From Flectonema sp. DT1601 (lineage: Eukaryota), in assembly GCA_964019425.1 (NCBI GenBank), contig OZ025783.1, positions 1,674,001 through 1,738,000 on the forward strand: a stretch of DNA of 64,000 bases, in the 5' to 3' direction. A program made the translations under genes and the position numbers. Under the pieces are notes generated by a model, which did not search any database, was not told the origin of the DNA, and saw only the letters and a list, made by a program, of their open reading frames with translations. Numbering within the stretch: the stretch's first letter is position 1; the number at the start of each line of letters is the position of its first letter. Positions 53,929 to 64,000 of this stretch are shown here, piece by piece.

Positions 53929-54090
53929 GTACATATTTTTGGTAACATTAAAGGGGTCTGTCAGCCTCAGGTTTTCTGATTTTGACTGGCATTGCAGCAC
54001 GTAATTTTTTCAAACCCTGCACTACTCCAATCACGGCTCAAACTATTTTGACCCATTTTTCAATTTTATTTTTTTTGAAGCCAGAACGGG

Positions 54091-54585
54091 AGCAGTTAAG
54101 ACCTAACTGACTGTCTGAGCTGTTACCCAAGTTTTGTGAGGAATGCCTTGAGGCGCAAATCATCAGCTTGCACTGCTTACGCCTGCCATTTGTACACTGC
54201 CCGTTGTGCCGATTGGCTGAAAAACTTTCGGTAAGCCCCCTTTGACAGGAATGTCTTCATTAATACTTGATTAGGGGTGAACGTCAGTGTTTAGAGTTTT
54301 TGTTTTCTTTTCGTGGTATGGCTGCATTAGACACATGTGTCTATTTTAAGAAAGGCTTTATATCAGTCATTTTATATGAATATTTTATTTATTACTCCAA
54401 TCTCCAATGATGCACCCGTGATCATTTCTTTCTTTTGTTTTCAACCTGTTAGTCTCTGGGAAGGTTGACAGCTGGGTATTGATCCAGTCAAAGCTACAAT
54501 AACACAATCTCTGCGATTGGGTCCTCCACTGCGGTTACCCAGACCCCTCGCAGTCCTGGACTTGCTAACTAACTAACCGACTAAG
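54091..54585 (+). repeat. Dispersed repeat family A, copy 2 (longer, ends in an (ACTA)n-like tail)
   Basis: AGCAGTTAAGAC...AACTGACTGTCT, GGTAAGCCC, GCTGGG.ATTGATCC and ACACAATCTC.GCGATTGGGT blocks are collinear with 56391-56815; tail GCTAACTAACTAACCGACTAA. Confidence 0.7.
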
Positions 54586-56390
54586 AAATTAAATAAATTG
54601 CGTAAGAAACCCTTATGTTGAGACCAGTCAAATTGCCGGACCAGACAGTTGGTACGGAAGATTTGCTTGAGCTGGCTCGCTCACCCTCATTTTCTTTTTG
54701 GTTTGGGTGTCGAGTGTTTCCTTGGTGCTACTGAATAGTTGCATCCCTTTCCTTTCGCTTTTGCTTTCTTCGACTTGACCTAAACCCTCATACGCTACAT
54801 GTAGCCAAGCTGCGTACTATTGAGGATCCAGTTTCCGTTATCAGCAATACGGAATTAGTCGTGAGCTTCTGCGTCATATTCGTTAATTAATCCTCTGCGG
54901 AGCCATTCTTGATAGATGGTAAACACCAATAAAAAGAGAGGGCCTCTGAAGTGCTTTGTGCGGTGATCATGTTGCTCACAAATAACTAGTGAGGCCTTCT
55001 TAGTTTTACAACGTAGCTTTTTAATCTAAGAGAGCCAAAACATTCAATTAATTACTGACAACATCGCAAAATATATATACGACGGTTCTAACCAAAGCAA
55101 TCAAAACATGATCTACATCCTTTTGTTGACGTTATTACTTTCGAGAACTCTAATATAAATCATCACGCACTCTTCAGCATTTTTTTGTGATCGATTTCGT
55201 ACTACTAAAATATCAATTCTACATTTCAATTCTACATTTATTTTTCGTTAGACTGACGCTGTGATTCTGTCAATCTCAATATTCCTGAAGACGGAGCAAA
55301 GAGAATTTCAGATCTGTGTCGAGCCGTGCGGCTATTTTTTTAAGGCCGCTTCGTAATATTTCCAATCGACAATTAGATTTCAAAACTGTTCAAATCTTTC
55401 TATCACAGTAGCGAATTGTTTACAGGCCATGTTCTATTACCCAACGAATGTCAACCATAAATACAATATCAACAATAGCAAGAACTTGACGTTTTCAGCG
55501 CGGAAGCTGAGTCGCTGTCGGTGTCGCGAGGCAATCATGAAATTAATGTTCAGGAAAAGTAAAATGCAACAAAAAGCAATATGAAACAAAAGCTCGTCAC
55601 ATTACCACTCACTGCGACTTATATTCGACACTCTCCCCTGGTAAGTGACTGCTTTGTTTACTTTTTATAGTTTTGTTATTTTTCACACCTGTCTTACTGA
55701 TTCTCATACCCTTCCAATATTCAACTACTACTCTTGCTGAAAACTTTAATTGTTCACCGTAACTCGTCTCTAACAACGATTCGGAGAACAATCGTAACGG
55801 ATTCATTTGCAAGAACACGGAAAACTTTTTCCTGCACGTCTGCAAAGTTGTGCAAATAACTACGAGTCGAATTCTTATCTGAACATGTTGTTTTGCCGCG
55901 AAGAGTGGTCTGGATCGAGTAGGTTGAGAATGTTTGCTGCGATCATTTATGAATCCTTTGTGAACATCGGGATCGAATATCCCACCGTGCTAACAATGCG
56001 CTATCAGTGCATTCCGTTGCAAAAACTCAAACTATTTGTCGTTCGTAGATCACTCGCCACGAATATAATAATATGTAGGTTGGATTAGTTCTTTGTATGT
56101 TTCTTTATTAATTCCCTTTCCTATTACTTATATTTTATTCTACACATATTGTCTTTCTTTCTCAATCCTTCACTCGATGGTTCGCGCTTAGAGCAAGATA
56201 ATAACGATAAGTAGTCTCCGGACCACTACCGTGACTATTCTTGATTCATGTGTTGGGGGCAGTTATTGGGGTGAGTTCCGTGCATGTCAAAAGTACATAG
56301 TAAAATATTATTTATTTTAGTGCATTTCTCGGAACAACGTCAATAAGGTTCCTAAGCGAATTTTATCGTCCGATCAAAAATACAGTCTGA

Positions 56391-56815
56391 AGCAGTTAAG
56401 ACTTAAAACTGACTGTCTCTCCCTACAGATTGGAATAGTTATTCGTGTTGCCAAAACCTTATGGTATATCTTTTAAAGCCTTTGGTAAGCCTTACACTAT
56501 TGGCAACGACCGTTGTGTCCCGATTTTTTTTATTTTGGGCGGCATTTGGCACACGTGACTATTGCATGAAGGAGGTGGAATGGAAAAGATATTTTATTTA
56601 TTACCCTACGATCATTTTGATTTTGATTTTTGTATATCGCAAGGTTTTTACTGTTTTTACATTGTCAAAGCTTTCCCTTCATCATTTCTTTTTTTTTTCT
56701 TCTACTTGTGTTTCTGCTGGGAATTGATCCTCTCAGCTGAACCTATAAAAACACAATCTCGCGATTGGGTTCTCTACTGGTGCGGGCTATGCCCGCAGTC
56801 ATCAGTTCTGGACTT
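56391..56815 (+). repeat. Dispersed repeat family A, copy 3
   Basis: Collinear blocks shared with 54091-54562 and 10750-10845. Confidence 0.7.
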
Positions 56816-58360
56816 AGAGCCAGATGATCTGCGATTCCGTCTTTCTTCCTTTTGTAATTTATTGGAGGAAGAAGAATAATTACATTGCTCTTCTGAAGTC
56901 CGTATCTTTTACTAACTTACGACAATATTAACGTTCGTGCGTTCACTTTGCTAATCCCACAGAGTTCTTTTCATTGCTCTGAGGGAAACCTTCACAATAA
57001 ATGAATTCTTTCCAAATTAACCCGAAAAAAGAAAACCGAGTTAATTATCTCAAACAATAAATATCAATATCAAGTACTAACATAGTAGCAACAACGCAAA
57101 AAGAAGTTACATCTCGTAACTCCCTGTCCCTTCAATTCAAACTGCAAGGAAGCCCACGCAATTATCAGTTGCTTCCATTCAGAGATTCTTGTGCGTTTTG
57201 TGGAACCAAGGATTAAGAAAGCTTTTCTTTGCCCTACACTGTCTTAATCCTATCTGCATTCTGGAATGCATCTCGAAATGGAAGCTTTTGAAGTGCTAAT
57301 GCTGTTTGCGCCGTTTGAATCTGAAAACCTGTACACAAGGTGGGATTGATAAAAATCTCGTGGCAAAACAAGTTTCTTTATAATACACTTGGCTGCTGAT
57401 CACTATCTAACCTTAGACATGTTGACAATCTTTAATACTGCATTATCCCCTCTTCATTTTCCTAAAACACCTGCTTACTTGTAGAAAAGTTAGCTGTCAT
57501 TCGGGCTGCTCTCTTGTAAAAACACGAGGAAGCATTATTTCCGTTATAATTTCTTTTGGACAAGGTTCCTATTATTTGTTAGTATCCTGAATTATTGTGA
57601 GTAAGTTGCCTGTACCACTCTCCACTCTTGCTCCAAGCAAGGTGAGGCAGCAGTTTAGTCACGTAAAGACAATCCCGAGTTAACTTATCTAACAACCTGA
57701 CCAACTACTTCTTTCTGCAATTTGCTATTCTTTATTCTTTTCGGGTCATACTTGCATAGATTCGATTTGAGCTATTTAAAATACAAACTCTTTCCTGTCT
57801 AGAGCATACGCTTGCTCGATACGCGATCTTCAGTACCGATCCACGGTGCGAAAGCATGGCCTAACGATCCTTTGGTCTCGCTTCGTATTAAAGAATAGTT
57901 GATCGGTGCGGAGAAGGGTTGGCGAGGTGTTGTTTTGTTTGACGGTCGATTTCTTGTCTGAATTCGTTTCTCGATATTTCATAAGATCACGCCTTTTTTT
58001 CATGTGTTTAAAAAAAATAAAAAAATAAAATTAAACTTTTCTCTCGATATTTCATAAGAAGAATATTCCGTTGTTGTTTTATGGCGACCTTTTTTTTCAC
58101 TCGCCTGTGCGACGGTTAAATTCAAAGTCTTGCTTTCCCAAGGAATCTATTTTTTATTTATTCCTAATGAATGAATCCTTTTGTTTGAGAATGGTATAGT
58201 GCTGAAACTGTGGAGTTATGTGTAGTTGTAAAGGGAATCGAAGCAAGTATTCAAAACATGCTTCCTGTATCCATAGCACCTTACCTTCAGAAAAACAACT
58301 ACATTTGTACAAATAGTCCTCTAAACTCCGTTCGAGTAACTCTTGCTTACGAACAAACTA

Positions 58361-58412
58361 ACTAGCTCCCTGTGTGGAATATAAATGCTCATCATGGAGC
58401 CTTTGAAACCGC
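58361..58412 (+). repeat. 52-bp perfect direct repeat, copy 1
   Basis: ACTAGCTCCCTGTGTGGAATATAAATGCTCATCATGGAGCCTTTGAAACCGC, identical to 61059-61110. Confidence 0.97.
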
Positions 58413-60797
58413 TACTCTACTTGCAATTGCAGTACTCAAGAACTGAATAGTTTAAAATACAACGGCCATTCTTGCGGACTCGCTATTGATTTACCAGTCT
58501 CAGAAGAACTAAGAGACTTCTTCGCACGAGGTCAAAAATTTAGAGTCCCAGTGCACCCATCAGCTGCATTAGAATCACTTGAAAATGATATTACTGAATA
58601 TATAACTCACGCATACAAGAACGTTGGCGATAACTTTAAATCGATCTTTAAAAACACAATTCTTAAACAATTGCAGCTTAAATTAAGTAAAGACTTAAGC
58701 TTTCTTGACTCACCATTATCAAATAAAGCATGGACTGAACTTCAGAATCTTCAATCTCAGTTTGTGTTTCTTAAAGTTGACAAAGGACAGCACGATATTG
58801 GTTACATGTGTAAAATAAATTATTTGCTTTTACTTCGAGAGCAGCTACAAAGTGATTCTTATGAACGCATCACATCAGACGAACCAACTCTACTAGCCAA
58901 CCTCAAGAACATGAACATTTCAATCAATGCCCGCCACTCTGATCGACTCCCACACCTATATGGAATGATTAAATTACACAAATCAGCTATCGGGATGAGA
59001 TGGATTACTGGTGTCTCATCCTTCACGGGTACAGCAGAACAACGACAATACGATAAGGATCATAATCTTGCACCTGCAACAGCAACAACATATGCGCACC
59101 AACATCTCTCTAGTATCCTTAAAAATGCGATGACTATATTGAAAGAGAAAGATATGCATTCACGGTTCAAACGATACTGGATTGTGGAATCAGATGATGA
59201 AGTCTCTAGTTCGATTAAACAGAATTTGATGGTTTTGAAAAAATTATCCCCTAAGACTTTTGATTTTACAACAATGTACACCCGCCTACCACACAACGCT
59301 ATTAAAACTAAAGTAAGTGAAGCACTGCAAGAAGCCTTTAGTTTCAAAAATATCTTACGTCTTGAATCGAGTGACCCTACACGATTCCCTTCTCTTGCGC
59401 TTGCAGAATGTCAAAAATTACTTGAATTCTGTATTGACTCCTCCTTTATTGCATTAAGAGGTTATATTTGGAGACAAACAATAGGCATTCCAATGGGTGG
59501 CAACGCCAGTAGCGATATAGCAAATCTCTACTGCTATAGAGTTGAATCCGCATATATCGATTCTTTAATTGAAGCAAAAAATCTAGACTTAGCTCGGCAA
59601 CATGACCACTCGTGTAGATACATCGACGACTTCCTCACCTGGAGTTGCGACCCTCCACCAGCAAGTCTATACTCAATGGATTACACTGATACTTCGAATA
59701 ATATTGATGATGTCTCTTATATAGGAATTCGTATCCGAATAGAGATCACTAACACAAATAAACGATGGATTCGTTTAAGTGTTAATGACAAAGCCAGGGG
59801 TTGGCATATTACGCCAACAAGGTTTACTCATCAGCATTCCGCAGCTCAAGAATCAATGGGTTCAGGTATCTTTACCACCATGATCTTACGAGCTCTAAAA
59901 ATCTGCAACAACCAGGCAGACTTTTTACAGGAACTTGAAGCGGTAACTTATAGATTACTCAACCGGGGCTATAAATCTGACAATATCAGAGCAGCATGCC
60001 TCCGCTTCATTAGCTCTCACATTGATGATGGTAATACAGCAGCTGCAATGCGTCGACGTATCAACCTTACTTTTGAGAAGTTTAGTCACAAAGTCCCATT
60101 AAGCATCGAAAAGGATACAATTAACCACACAGGCTCTACAAGCCATTCCTTGGATAAACGATTTCCACCATCCCTACATCAAACATCAGGAGAAGGTCTT
60201 CTCGGTGGAGAATGCGGATGGGCAGCGCTCAACTTCATTGCAGATCATTTATATATCGATAGAATTAACTTCAGTTTTCTGCAAAACTACCAACAGCGAT
60301 TTTATGAAGAATCTCTTAAAGTAGAACCGAACAACTCAGAGCATAAACCATCACCAGATGGTTGGTTCTCGCTACAAGTACTTAACATGGCTTGCATGAC
60401 TAAATTCAACAGAAGAATCGAGTACTTCGTTAACCCAGCAGATTTCGATTATCCTGAAGCAGCCGCAGCACTTATTCTACATAAAGCGAAAACAAGGATG
60501 ACTCACTTTATTGTTGCGCTAGTCTCATTTGAGTCCATGATCATCCGAGACATTCTTAAAGGCACAAAAGATTTAAGACTCCCTTTCGATCATTTTGACA
60601 AGATGTACCGAACTACAGAGTATAGTTTCCATATGATACCATTAAAAGCTCAGACTGATATGGATGTTACGATGACACCAGCGAATATAGGACCTTTGAT
60701 GATATGCGAAGATAAAGTAAAACGCAAATTGGATGACGACTCATCCATTAACTCGACTGTAATAGTGAAACGATCAGACGTCAAAAATTCAAATTGA
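58407..60797 (+). CDS. PLE reverse transcriptase fused to a C-terminal Josephin-like cysteine protease; open frame starts at 58407 with no ATG until 58806
   Basis: RT motifs VDKG, LPHLYGMIKLHK...MRWI, TFDFTTMYTRLPH (Asp at 59262), QTIGIPMGGNASSDIANLY, RYIDD (59616-59630), SYIGI, and thumb ending LLNRGY. Protease-like region 60171-60641. Confidence 0.88.
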   Translation, partial: NRYSTCNCSTQELNSLKYNGHSCGLAIDLPVSEELRDFFARGQKFRVPVHPSAALESLENDITEYITHAYKNVGDNFKSIFKNTILKQLQLKLSKDLSFLDSPLSNKAWTELQNLQSQFVFLKVDKGQHDIGYMCKINYLLLLREQLQSDSYERITSDEPTLLANLKNMNISINARHSDRLPHLYGMIKLHKSAIGMRWITGVSSFTGTAEQRQYDKDHNLAPATATTYAHQHLSSILKNAMTILKEKDMHSRFKRYWIVESDDEVSSSIKQNLMVLKKLSPKTFDFTTMYTRLPHNAIKTKVSEALQEAFSFKNILRLESSDPTRFPSLALAECQKLLEFCIDSSFIALRGYIWRQTIGIPMGGNASSDIANLYCYRVESAYIDSLIEAKNLDLARQHDHSCRYIDDFLTWSCDPPPASLYSMDYTDTSNNIDDVSYIGIRIRIEITNTNKRWIRLSVNDKARGWHITPTRFTHQHSAAQESMGSGIFTTMILRALKICNNQADFLQELEAVTYRLLNRGYKSDNIRAACLRFISSHIDDGNTAAAMRRRINLTFEKFSHKVPLSIEKDTINHTGSTSHSLDKRFPPSLHQTSGEGLLGGECGWAALNFIADHLYIDRINFSFLQNYQQRFYEESLKVEPNNSEHKPSPDGWFSLQVLNMACMTKFNRRIEYFVNPADFDYPEAAAALILHKAKTRMTHFIVALVSFESMIIRDILKGTKDLRLPFDHFDKMYRTTEYSFHMIPLKAQTDMDVTMTPANIGPLMICEDKVKRKLDDDSSINSTVIVKRSDVKNSN

Positions 60798-60876
60798 GCA
60801 AAAGCAAATAAACATTGCTAGCCCTATCCTGGCGAGCTCCGATGGATTTTTATCTTTGAACGATAGCAACTTCAAC

Positions 60877-60963
60877 ATAGAATGAAGTCCCTTAGAACTT
60901 ACTGATGAAGGCCTAAAAAGGGACAAGTAGTATAAGATTAAGGCCTGAAACTACATATTCTAT
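60877..60963 (+). ncRNA. Putative hammerhead ribozyme with rearranged (non-circularly permuted) strand order
   Basis: CUGAUGA 60902-60908; stem II AGGCCU 60909-60914/60941-60946; GAAA 60947-60950; stem III CUAC 60951-60954/GUAG 60927-60930; UA at 60931-60932; stem I CUUA 60898-60901/UAAG 60933-60936; extra helices 60887-60893/60918-60924 and 60877-60883/60957-60963. Confidence 0.7.
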
Positions 60964-61058
60964 TACCCTTTGATGTTAGGAAACTGCAGAAATGAATACT
61001 TTTCTTTTATTGATCTCTACTTTTCTTATTCTCACTTTTCTGTTCTAAAATTAATGAT

Positions 61059-61110
61059 ACTAGCTCCCTGTGTGGAATATAAATGCTCATCATGGAGCCT
61101 TTGAAACCGC
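61059..61110 (+). repeat. 52-bp perfect direct repeat, copy 2
   Basis: Identical to 58361-58412. Confidence 0.97.
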
Positions 61111-61453
61111 ATCCTCTTTTCTCTCTCTTTTACTACGGATCTTGGATGACGCGCAAAAGGAGGGTTCTTTCACTTTTTGTTGTCGGAATCTTGTCTGTCT
61201 ATCCATCCTGAAAGTTTGATCTATGATTCGTGAGTTGGTGGATTGTACTATTTTTCAACCAGCAAAACTAATCATAACAATGAAGGGTGGATAACAAGAT
61301 GAAATGGAACTCATGCCGTTTTAGGGATGCAGCAATGATTCTGGTGTCGATCAGGTCTTTCTTTTTTTTAATCGCGTTAATACCTTTTCTTTTTTCATGA
61401 AAATAATTTTGTAACCTGTACTTAATTACTTGACTCCTCAGCATCAAAAGAAA

Positions 61454-61885
61454 ATGGGAAAGCCACGTGGTATTAACACAGCGAGAAAGCTGAAGACCAG
61501 AAGAAGAACCCAGAAGTGGGCTGACAAGGACTGGAAGAAGGCTCACTTGAGCGTTTCAATTAAGGCGAATGTATTCGGAGGATCTTCCCACGTTAAAGGA
61601 ATCGTTTTAGAGAAGATTGGTGTCGAAGCGAAGCAGCCGAATTCGGCCATCAGAAAGTGCGTTCGTGTTCAGCTAATTAAAAACGGAAAGAAAATCCTCG
61701 CGTTCGTTCCAAACGATGGTTGCCTTCACTTTGTTGAGGAAAACGACGAAGTTCTTGTTGCAGGTCTTGGGCGTTCTGGTCACGCTGTTGGAGACATTCC
61801 CGGAGTTCGTTTCAAGATCAGTAAAGTTTCGGGTGTAGGTCTATTTGCCCTGTACCGTGAGAAGAAGGAGAAGCCACGTTCTTAG
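61454..61885 (+). CDS. RPS23: 40S ribosomal protein S23 (uS12)
   Basis: [13 protein letters not shown]...[25 protein letters not shown]...GDIPGVRFK...KKEKPRS. ATG at 61454 after pyrimidine tract + CAG. Confidence 0.98.
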
Positions 61886-62631
61886 ACTAGCAATCACCCA
61901 TCAAACGCTCTGGCTCAACATCATCTACGCCAGCTACTCTCAACTCAAATCACAGAAACTGTTCTTCAAATCTTTCGGTGATTTCATTGTTGCTTACGAG
62001 CCATGTGGTTTTAAGGGGCAATGGAATACTTAAGATGAAGTGGTATCATTAATCATCAAAGACCGGCTTGATGCCATCGCGGAGTGCCTAGTATGGCTGT
62101 CAGTGCGTTTGTATTGTTGTTCCGCATTCAGCGAAATAAATAGTCTTTGTTACAGGAAAAACAAACATAGCAGTGAGCGAGGCGGTTTTAATTGGTTGTC
62201 TGAACAATTCTGTGTATTGTGTCAAGGTAATTAGAATATTTTATTATTTACAGGTTACCCCTAGAGACAGAATAACCCGACTTTTGTAAGCACGAGGTTT
62301 CTTCGCATTTACCTCTGAACTCTTTTATAACCCTATTTCTAGTTTAGGAAGTAACACACGTAGAGAATAATAAAATCAACTTCCTTTCATCTACTCCCAC
62401 AGTAGCCATACTTATGATGATAGAATAGAGTTAAAGAGGTAACCTAAGTTCACTTTAAAAAGCTGCAGTACAATTAATTCTATAAACCCCTCCACAGAGT
62501 AGATTCAGTACGACGTCTCGAGACGGTTAGCCTTGGCGAGCTCTAGTTAACGTTTCCACTTTTTGCTACAGTTTCAACACTAGCCGTGTCAACATCCCGT
62601 CTTGTTTTACAGGAAATTACTTAAAACAACA

Positions 62632-64000
62632 ATGCAGGTTTCTGTGACATGTCCGGATTTGGGATTCGCTGCAGTGTCAGTCACGGTTAGTGTTGATTCC
62701 CTTGTGAGCGAAGTCTTGACATCGGCGGCTGGGGAGTGGGATGTCGATACGGAGGAAGTTGAACTGTCGTTCGCTGGTGACACCCTTTGCGAAGGTGAGC
62801 GACTAGCAGATCGTGGAGTGGGTGGAGACAGCGAGTTGGAGATGTGGAAGAAGCGGTTTCGTATATTCAGTAAATGCTGGTTTGTTAATGATTCAAAACG
62901 GGAGAAGCTGCTTCGTTGGATAAGAGAACACAATGAGGAATACTTATACCTTGACACCACAACATTCACAGAGGATGGTTGCCTCGATATTGAGGATGAT
63001 TTGCTTCCTTCTGATGCCGAACGGGTTTCTTTCCGCAATTCAAATTCCGTCGCCTCAGCCATCTCACAAGTTGTCACTATTGGAGAATATTTCTTGTCTT
63101 CCTGTTCACAAATCACTTGGGATCACGACACCTGCCTCCTCGCGGCGGTCCCGGACGACTTCGATAGGGGTCGACAAGACGGTGTCAAACGCAAGGGATG
63201 CGAACAACATCAACACCAACCACCACATCAAGAGCATCCGAACACTGGATGTTTCTTATCCAACAAAGAAAGAAACAGGCTGGCCCATGCCTTGAATGGC
63301 AATGGTGGAACAAGGAAGGACAGCAGAGACCGACGCCCGCGGGACGACACTCGCGACAGGGACGAGGACCGCACGGACAAGGAAGAACGCCGGCTGGCGA
63401 AACTCGAGAAGGAAAAACTCGAGTCGCTAGACGAAATCGAGGAAGAGAAGCAGCGGCTGGGGCAACAGAGAATGGCCATGGAGCAGCACCACCACCAGAA
63501 GGAAACCAACCTTCAAGGACAAGAAAAACAGTTGGAACAGCAACGCCAACACCAACAACAAGAACTGCAAAGTCAGTACCACCAACAACAGCAGCAACTG
63601 CAAAGCCACCATCAGCTGAAGGAAACGGAAAGTCTCCAGAAGGAGCAAAACCTACAGGCTCAACTCAAAGAGCAACATCAGCACCAACAGAAGGATTTGG
63701 AGAAGCAATACCGCCAACGACAACAGCAACTGGAAAGCCAGCAGCAGAAGAAGGACGCCGAGTCCGAACAGCAAGCACATTTGACTCGGTCACAACTACA
63801 GAAGGAAAAGGAATCCTTCCAGACGGAGAAGGAACGGCTCCACCTCCAGCTGGATCAGCAGCTAAGGAATGAGAAGGACCACCTCCACCGAAAGCTCAAG
63901 GAGCAGATTGGACAAGAAAAAGTCCAACAACAACAAAAGCTCCAACAGAAGGAAGACGAGATCCAACGGCGTGAGGAAGAGGTGAACCGAGGACAGCAGC
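62632..64000 (+). CDS. Open frame running off the window: ubiquitin-like domain + start of BspA-type LRR (62632-63118) fused in frame to Gln/Glu-rich coiled coil (from ~63119)
   Basis: Hand translation from ATG 62632: MQVSVTCPDLG...VSEVLTSAAGEWDVDTEEVELSFAGDTLCEGERLADRGVGGDSELEMWKK...VVTIGEYFLSSCSQIT, then ...KEERRLAKLEKEKLES...QQRQHQQQELQSQ..., no stop to 64000. Missing from the ORF track because it has no stop in the window. Confidence 0.75.
   Translation, partial: MQVSVTCPDLGFAAVSVTVSVDSLVSEVLTSAAGEWDVDTEEVELSFAGDTLCEGERLADRGVGGDSELEMWKKRFRIFSKCWFVNDSKREKLLRWIREHNEEYLYLDTTTFTEDGCLDIEDDLLPSDAERVSFRNSNSVASAISQVVTIGEYFLSSCSQITWDHDTCLLAAVPDDFDRGRQDGVKRKGCEQHQHQPPHQEHPNTGCFLSNKERNRLAHALNGNGGTRKDSRDRRPRDDTRDRDEDRTDKEERRLAKLEKEKLESLDEIEEEKQRLGQQRMAMEQHHHQKETNLQGQEKQLEQQRQHQQQELQSQYHQQQQQLQSHHQLKETESLQKEQNLQAQLKEQHQHQQKDLEKQYRQRQQQLESQQQKKDAESEQQAHLTRSQLQKEKESFQTEKERLHLQLDQQLRNEKDHLHRKLKEQIGQEKVQQQQKLQQKEDEIQRREEEVNRGQQ
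63119..63186 (+). ncRNA. Putative HDV-like self-cleaving ribozyme
   Basis: P1 GGGAUC 63119-63124/GGUCCC 63147-63152; P2 GACACC 63127-63132/GGUGUC 63181-63186; P3 GCC 63134-63136/GGC 63144-63146; L3 UCCUCGC; GG 63153-63154 for P1.1; P4 63156-63162/63167-63173; candidate catalytic C at 63175. Confidence 0.78.
63119..64000 (+). mobile_element. Probable 5' end of a non-LTR retrotransposon inserted in the UBL-LRR gene
   Basis: Abrupt change to GC-richer, T-poor sequence starting exactly at an HDV-like ribozyme, followed by coiled-coil coding sequence. RT/endonuclease are not within the window. Confidence 0.55.

Follow-up and report, generated by a model that had tools for sequence, protein, structure and literature searches.

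All the parts of a hammerhead were found at 60877–60963 of the window (the whole stretch of DNA that was analysed, 64 kb in length), where the blocks lie in the order C-S-G within the 3′ tail of a Penelope-like element (PLE). On its sequence this hammerhead is predicted, with good confidence, to be a self-cleaving ribozyme that likely cuts after A60932. The type of ribozyme is already known, and its setting in Naiad/Chlamys elements is new to the literature found.

Structure of the motif

The hammerhead can be divided into blocks C, G and S, which are arranged as CGS, GSC and SCG in types I–III, the non-circular orders being SGC, CSG and GCS (Eckert et al., 2023, PMC10085705, in the part available). 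The blocks of the window motif read C-S-G, an order outside types I–III as the earlier note had claimed, and correspond to type CSG of that paper; the note had described rearranged hammerheads as a rare class. Every core part and helix that the note had placed within the motif was found on reading the sequence:

60877..60963, + strand: predicted type-CSG hammerhead, whole motif (from the layout as in CSG-1 and CSG-2, descriptor scans and shuffles)
60877–60884 with 60956–60963, + strand: outer closing helix, 7 Watson-Crick pairs and one G-U
60887–60893 with 60918–60924, + strand: helix X, 7 bp, closing hairpin 1 (60887..60924), whose 24-nt loop is block C, made up of the stem I 5′ strand, CUGAUGA and the stem II 5′ strand
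60898–60901 with 60933–60936, + strand: stem I, 4 bp
60902..60908, + strand: core strand CUGAUGA (C3–A9), from the sequence
60909–60914 with 60941–60946, + strand: stem II, 6 bp, the same self-complementary hexamer on both sides
60927..60954, + strand: hairpin 2, stem III with U16.1–A15.1 (pair probability 0.94–0.99), whose 18-nt loop is blocks S and G, made up of A17, the stem I 3′ strand, a 4-nt linker, the stem II 3′ strand and GAA
60927–60930 with 60951–60954, + strand: stem III, 4 bp
60931, + strand: U16.1, which pairs with A15.1 at 60950
60932..60933, + strand: predicted cleavage site, 3′ of A60932 (H17, GUA triplet), by analogy with the hammerhead core
60947..60950, + strand: core strand GAAA (G12–A15.1), from the sequence

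The invariant core positions (CUGA-GA, GAAA, UH and the A15.1–U16.1 pair) are all intact, stems I, II and III adjoin the core strands, and the gap between the two core halves is 38 nt. G10.1–C11.1 is a conserved hammerhead pair outside the invariant core positions; in the window motif this pair is A-U, which is Watson-Crick and not the usual G-C.

The host element and its insertion

The motif lies on the same strand as a truncated ORF, in an insertion with the following parts:

58361..58412, + strand: left copy of a perfect 52-bp direct repeat
58416..60797, + strand: 5′-truncated Chlamys-type PLE ORF (CxC, DKG, reverse transcriptase, C-terminal Josephin-like extension)
60798..61062, + strand: 3′ UTR/pseudo-LTR part, the contigs of two separate runs both ceasing to match at 61062
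61059..61110, + strand: right copy of the perfect 52-bp direct repeat, its first 4 nt overlapping the element 3′ end

The ORF corresponds to residues 558–1350 of a full-length member and is 99–100% identical to two such members over the shared part (99.4% to P0024, 100% to P0018). It begins with CNC, the CxC motif before the reverse transcriptase (RT), and contains DKG, the DK motif. The GIY-YIG endonuclease is missing from the truncated window copy and was located by motif N-terminal to the RT in P0024 and P0018, the order in the full-length relatives being GIY-YIG, CxC, DKG and RT. A sister family (P0028) gave a weak Pfam match to GIY-YIG that fell below the cut-off (E 0.007), and the window ORF itself was not recognised by Pfam. 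No zinc finger (CCHH or CX2-5CxxC) was seen at the GIY-YIG of P0024 and P0028, where there are isolated cysteines only; the absence of a zinc finger at the endonuclease separates Chlamys from Naiad. By its motifs the element is a Chlamys-type (CxC) PLE, and the CxC-type identity given in the earlier note is borne out by CNC, DKG and a GIY-YIG without zinc-finger cysteines in near-identical full-length members. The P0001 cluster has 59 members, and among the 15 members listed, possibly from more than one genome, 14 match the window ORF at 93–100%. One relative came from the diplonemid Flectonema neradi and others from Diplonema papillatum. Two D. papillatum proteins, P0073 (‘Kinesin-like protein 3’) and P0075 (‘Ubiquitin carboxyl-terminal hydrolase 26’), are by score near relatives of the window RT and probably represent unrecognised Chlamys-type elements.

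The C-terminal extension (window 60150–60680) aligns to regions of P0005, P0009 and P0010 that include Pfam Josephin matches (HHalign probability 76.8, E 2e-5), and its Cys, His and Asp line up with theirs; a pairwise BLAST comparison of the extension with a Josephin-hit protein gave no significant match (E 0.11). Other relatives have UCH or OTU protease domains at the same place, which suggests that these elements acquired deubiquitinase-like domains on several occasions.

The window copy is single and 5′-truncated. Its motif starts 80 nt past the stop codon and the predicted cut lies 130 nt before the element end. The 52-bp repeat is likely a target-site duplication because the contigs of two runs end their match at 61062; these contigs cease matching 4 nt into the repeat, which makes it unlikely that the repeat is element sequence. 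The 4-nt overlap of the right repeat with the element 3′ end is possibly microhomology. A duplication of 52 bp is long for a target site, and 3 bases at the 5′ junction (58413–58415) are unassigned. An intact ribosomal protein S23 gene lies on the same strand at 61454–61885, about 340 nt downstream of the right repeat, and its protein clusters with diplonemid proteins. Together with the relatives from F. neradi and D. papillatum, this identifies the host as a diplonemid. Elsewhere in the window, 54415–54531 and 56675–56793 are approximately 70% alike, with more short matches about 2.2 kb apart, suggesting an old local duplication or a repeat.

Chance, folding and standard searches

Using a descriptor of stems I–III and helix X the window motif scored 53, while the best type-CSG score in 60 whole-window shuffles, both strands included, was 35 and none of the 60 reached 53. 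A pattern search with core-only descriptors in six block orders, of the kind that the earlier note had proposed, returned this motif as the sole match in the 64-kb window. The note had also described two additional helices as clamping the fold. Helix X was matched in 0 of 500 shuffles; the outer helix is present in the window sequence but was only marginal against shuffles (p 0.08) and was not above chance in the other 10 CSG matches described below. The outer helix was rejected on that ground as a general clamp and as a feature of the class, and is probably specific to the family of this element.

Folding with ViennaRNA predicted a nested scaffold of the outer helix, helix X and stem III with pair probabilities of mostly 0.8–1.0, including 6 of the 7 pairs of helix X; the program is unable to show stems I and II, which cross this scaffold. 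The overall folding z-score was only −1.5, and stem I is weak (4 bp, duplex −0.8 kcal/mol).

Standard searches miss the motif, as the note had supposed. Rfam gave no hammerhead in window positions 54000–64000, nor in 20 of the 88 related loci (see below) that were picked as motif carriers. The core search of Craig et al. (2021, PMC8557442, in the part available) allowed 7–17 nt between the halves, compared to 38 nt here, and the published CSG descriptor, which needs a G after CUGAUGA and a C before GAAA, would reject the motif because of A10.1–U11.1.

Recurrence in related elements

An alignment of 12 RT proteins was used as the query for related elements and retrieved 88 loci, 77 from metagenomes and 11 from genome bins; a scan of viral contigs with the RT alignment found no relatives. 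The 11 genome-bin loci (L078–L088) are eukaryote-type PLE contigs under bacterial or archaeal MAG titles, and are probably misbinned eukaryotic contigs and not prokaryotic elements. One of them (L078) matches a metagenome locus (L017).

A core-only scan of the 88 loci in six block orders on both strands gave eight CSG and two SGC-like matches, all on the sense (RT) strand, and no hammerheads of types I–III; the control of 10 dinucleotide shuffles gave 0.3 matches per set. The two SGC-like matches (L017 and L078, one element) were not kept as type SGC, a core-opened layout giving a better fit. This second layout was seen on reading the UTRs and runs in the order stem II 5′ strand, X, block S, block G, X partner, stem I strand and CUGAnGA. 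Past A9 the chain exits via a closing helix, and a hairpin precedes stem II. The layout is that of CSG with the chain opened anew between A9 and position 10.1, where two additional helices lie at the break.

An extended descriptor with a score of at least 45 gave 10 CSG and 18 core-opened matches in the 88 loci, with none antisense and none in six shuffled sets, the descriptor and the cut-off of 45 having been written after the data were viewed and the pairing in the matches being partly by construction. Examples of the core-opened layout are L001, L003, L011, L012, L014, L017, L018, L023, L040, L041, L042, L050 and L057 (3′ UTR/pseudo-LTR). Removal of the near-duplicates L002, L004, L007, L078 and L079 from the 28 matches, and addition of the window, gave a non-redundant set of 24. 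Across this set two to six pair types occur at each position of stem I, stem II and stem III, and strands pair with their own partners at 92–99% compared to 49–59% across loci. The earlier note had made its claim depend on conservation or covariation of the short stems I and III among copies; among these relatives stems I, II and III covary. The G10.1–C11.1 pair, which the descriptor does not impose, is present in 23 of the 24, the window having the sole A10.1–U11.1. Pairs were counted at anchor positions because MAFFT misaligned the window motif against the 10 CSG relatives. Tests of helix X gave p ≤0.006 in 7 of 11 cases and were not significant in 3, in matches that already required X, and for the opened layout only 5 of 13 closing helices reached significance individually (p <0.05).

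The motif lies 109–1049 nt past the ORF stop in 26 of the 28 matches. In L043 and L003, whose contigs assembled into circles (as did that of L087), it lies ahead of the ORF, a placement that fits with tandem units. A scored motif is present in 20 of the 41 loci that have at least 500 nt after the stop and is not universal; three loci without one (L015, L035 and L062) have what appear by eye to be cut or worn copies. When one mismatch in the core was allowed in the 60 loci lacking a match, L087 and L065 were the only convincing additions, and the scan was noisy, with an antisense match scoring 57. An RT tree was built with FastTree from 90 sequences and 508 columns, with 10 short loci left out and no named reference elements. 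Both layouts occur in this tree among loci with the Naiad-type endonuclease and among loci without it, and the window element stands apart from the loci with the Naiad-type endonuclease, named Chlamys being absent from the tree.

Conservation within the family

A 709-nt marine metatranscriptome contig spans 60289–60991 with 43 other letters and 8 gaps (approximately 6% diverged). No change is listed for this contig at 60877–60960, the nearest being at 60876, in a listing from which 6 of 18 differences near the contig ends are absent. The contig also has A10.1–U11.1. The chance of finding no change over the motif is about 0.003 at the mean rate of the contig and about 0.11 at the rate of the adjacent UTR (60800–60876, 2 listed changes in 77 nt), and the invariance of the motif sequence lends modest support to its conservation. 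No compensatory change within the family was seen in this one diverged contig. A contig of run X1 matches 36 nt at 60925–60960 and continues with 94 unrelated letters; it may come from a copy that ends within the outer helix, or from a sister family whose ribozyme has the same 3′ half.

Published Naiad and Chlamys elements

The earlier note had stated that CxC-type PLEs were described as lacking canonical hammerheads, and this is stated for Naiads and most Chlamys in the available part of Craig et al. (2021, PMC8557442). The same paper marks eight ‘HHR_half_core’ cases, with halves 35–50 nt apart. In a partial survey of its supplement both layouts are visible by eye in the published Naiad consensus sequences. 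A complete CSG layout closes the records just before Naiad-3_Nbra, Naiad_Hcon, Naiad_Asuum and Naiad_Lpol, which the table order assigns to Naiad-2_Nbra, Naiad-3_Nbra, Naiad_Hpol and Naiad_Smim; the last three of these are ‘HHR_half_core’ entries. The opened layout closes the records before Naiad_Aacu, Naiad_Ovul and Naiad_Omin. Several other passages show by eye a core half without a layout that could be completed, and the algal Chlamys passages of the surveyed supplement gave no clear case by eye.

In the literature covered, which included few subscription journals, no link of scrambled hammerheads to Naiad or Chlamys and no hammerhead opened between A9 and stem II was found, and Eckert et al. 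was the sole primary source found for non-circular or rearranged hammerheads. In the available part of that paper a chain break between A9 and stem II was assumed to be impossible (PMC10085705). Permuted ribozymes are not mentioned in the available part of a 2026 retrozyme preprint (10.64898/2026.07.22.740005).

It is considered fairly probable that, across animals and protists, scrambled hammerheads have one of their main natural homes in Naiad/Chlamys elements, in two circularly permuted layouts (type CSG, and that opened between A9 and stem II), that these ribozymes account for the ‘HHR_half_core’ entries of Craig et al., and that the orphan soil CSG ribozymes may stem from nematode Naiads. 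As the scrambled layout recurs in elements reported to be without hammerheads, these related elements likely cut their own RNA.

Proposed mechanism and alternatives

The window motif is judged to be a real and probably active type-CSG variant in a Chlamys-type element of a new host group. Two hairpins, closed by helix X and by stem III, would fold as the RNA is made, and their loops would kiss through stems I and II to give an ordinary hammerhead active site, with helix X standing in for the usual tertiary contact between stem I and stem II. The chain would be cut after A60932. Hammerhead cleavage chemistry produces 2′,3′-cyclic phosphate and 5′-OH ends, which would here be carried by A60932 and U60933 respectively. 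It has been proposed that pseudo-LTR hammerheads trim precursor RNA into unit-length pieces, which may then circularise (PMC4209133, in the part available). By analogy, cuts in successive pseudo-LTRs of tandem copies may yield unit-length element RNA from read-through transcripts. Since the window copy spans an intact cut site and continues for 130 nt beyond it, the template of this copy had likely stayed uncut, been re-ligated (circular) or been bridged through a template jump. The outlying A10.1–U11.1 pair and the weak 4-bp stem I suggest that the window ribozyme may be slow.

These same features could instead reflect a CSG-derived fold that is attenuated or silent in this family and is retained in the pseudo-LTR as a signal for protein binding or for reverse transcription. 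The A10.1–U11.1 outlier is shared by the diverged copy, stem I is weak, the inserted DNA is intact across the cut site, and many PLE hammerheads have low activity in vitro, with other functions left open (PMC4209133, in the part available). However, the invariant core positions are retained, the 10.1–11.1 pair is still Watson-Crick and the family looks young, with ORFs 93–100% identical, and attenuation is regarded as improbable. It is quite unlikely that the ribozyme works as a dimer, with its self-complementary stem II strands pairing across two transcripts or two tandem units, and no support was found for the suggestion in the earlier note that the palindromic stem II might permit dimeric folding: both strands do form the same palindrome, that of L012 is palindromic too, and dimeric PLE hammerheads are known, the minimal ones dimerising via a palindromic stem III (PMC4209133, in the part available), but stem II is non-palindromic in most relatives, the monomer already has a complete stem III and does not need a partner, and CSG-1 and CSG-2 cleaved as single constructs (PMC10085705, in the part available). 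That short motifs and short helices merely came together by chance in an AT-rich UTR, as the 4-bp lengths of stems I and III, the z-score and the lack of an Rfam match might suggest, is highly improbable and is largely refuted by the scans, shuffles and pair counts, no window shuffle having reached the motif score and the layout recurring in the 3′ UTRs of many relatives on the sense strand, never antisense, with different covarying stems.

Implications of a predicted type-CSG ribozyme in a retrotransposon

The window motif places type CSG, until now two soil sequences without a known biological setting, in a eukaryotic chromosome. The type gains 11 scored examples whose stems differ, and a role in a retrotransposon becomes plausible for it. 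This bears on the puzzle raised by Craig et al. (2021), where the clade with an N-terminal endonuclease was seemingly without the hammerheads of other PLE clades yet contained ‘half cores’ 35–50 nt apart. Chlamys-type PLEs are extended to diplonemids, and a kissing-loop hammerhead of two hairpins in less than 90 nt is a good target for structure work.

Comparison with known hammerheads and elements

In the available part of Eckert et al. (2023, PMC10085705) type CSG comprises two unique sequences (5 hits) from soil metagenome DNA, for which the host or element is not stated there. CSG-1 and CSG-2 cleaved in vitro at the predicted site, with slow rates of 0.004 and 0.026 per min, and the covariation of the published type was modest. 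Like both, the window motif has the C-S-G order, a complete core and, at the same location, a helix that connects the stem I side to the stem II side; stem III is preceded by a 2-nt linker and the stem II 3′ strand by a short one. It differs from them in its A10.1–U11.1 pair, its stem I of 4 bp, its GUA site and its additional outer helix, and in lying in the UTR of a retrotransposon in a eukaryotic chromosome, whereas CSG-1 and CSG-2 are from soil DNA. Type SGC (HRIMA-1 and variants in the same available part of that paper) has the same cyclic block order and a stem I–II helix, types CSG and SGC being circular permutations of one another; in type SGC the chain ends elsewhere, and it was found beside hairpin ribozymes in RNA data and is not reported there in retrotransposons.

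The canonical PLE hammerheads (Cervera and de la Pena, 2014, PMC4209133, in the part available) likewise sit in the terminal repeat of a PLE and are proposed to cut precursor RNA to unit length. They are type I (C-G-S), often minimal and dimeric, while the window motif is modelled as a pseudoknotted monomer. Among the elements described by Craig et al. (2021, PMC8557442, in the part available) the window element is like Chlamys, especially Chlamys-1_cBra, in the N-terminal GIY-YIG without CCHH or CxxC zinc fingers, and shares with Chlamys the CxC motif, the DK motif, frequent 5′ truncation and a C-terminal Josephin-like extension. The known hosts of Chlamys given there are green algae, spike mosses and a slime mold, whereas the window element is in a diplonemid (Euglenozoa); and Chlamys are described as being without canonical hammerheads in all but two subclades, whereas the window element has a scrambled one.
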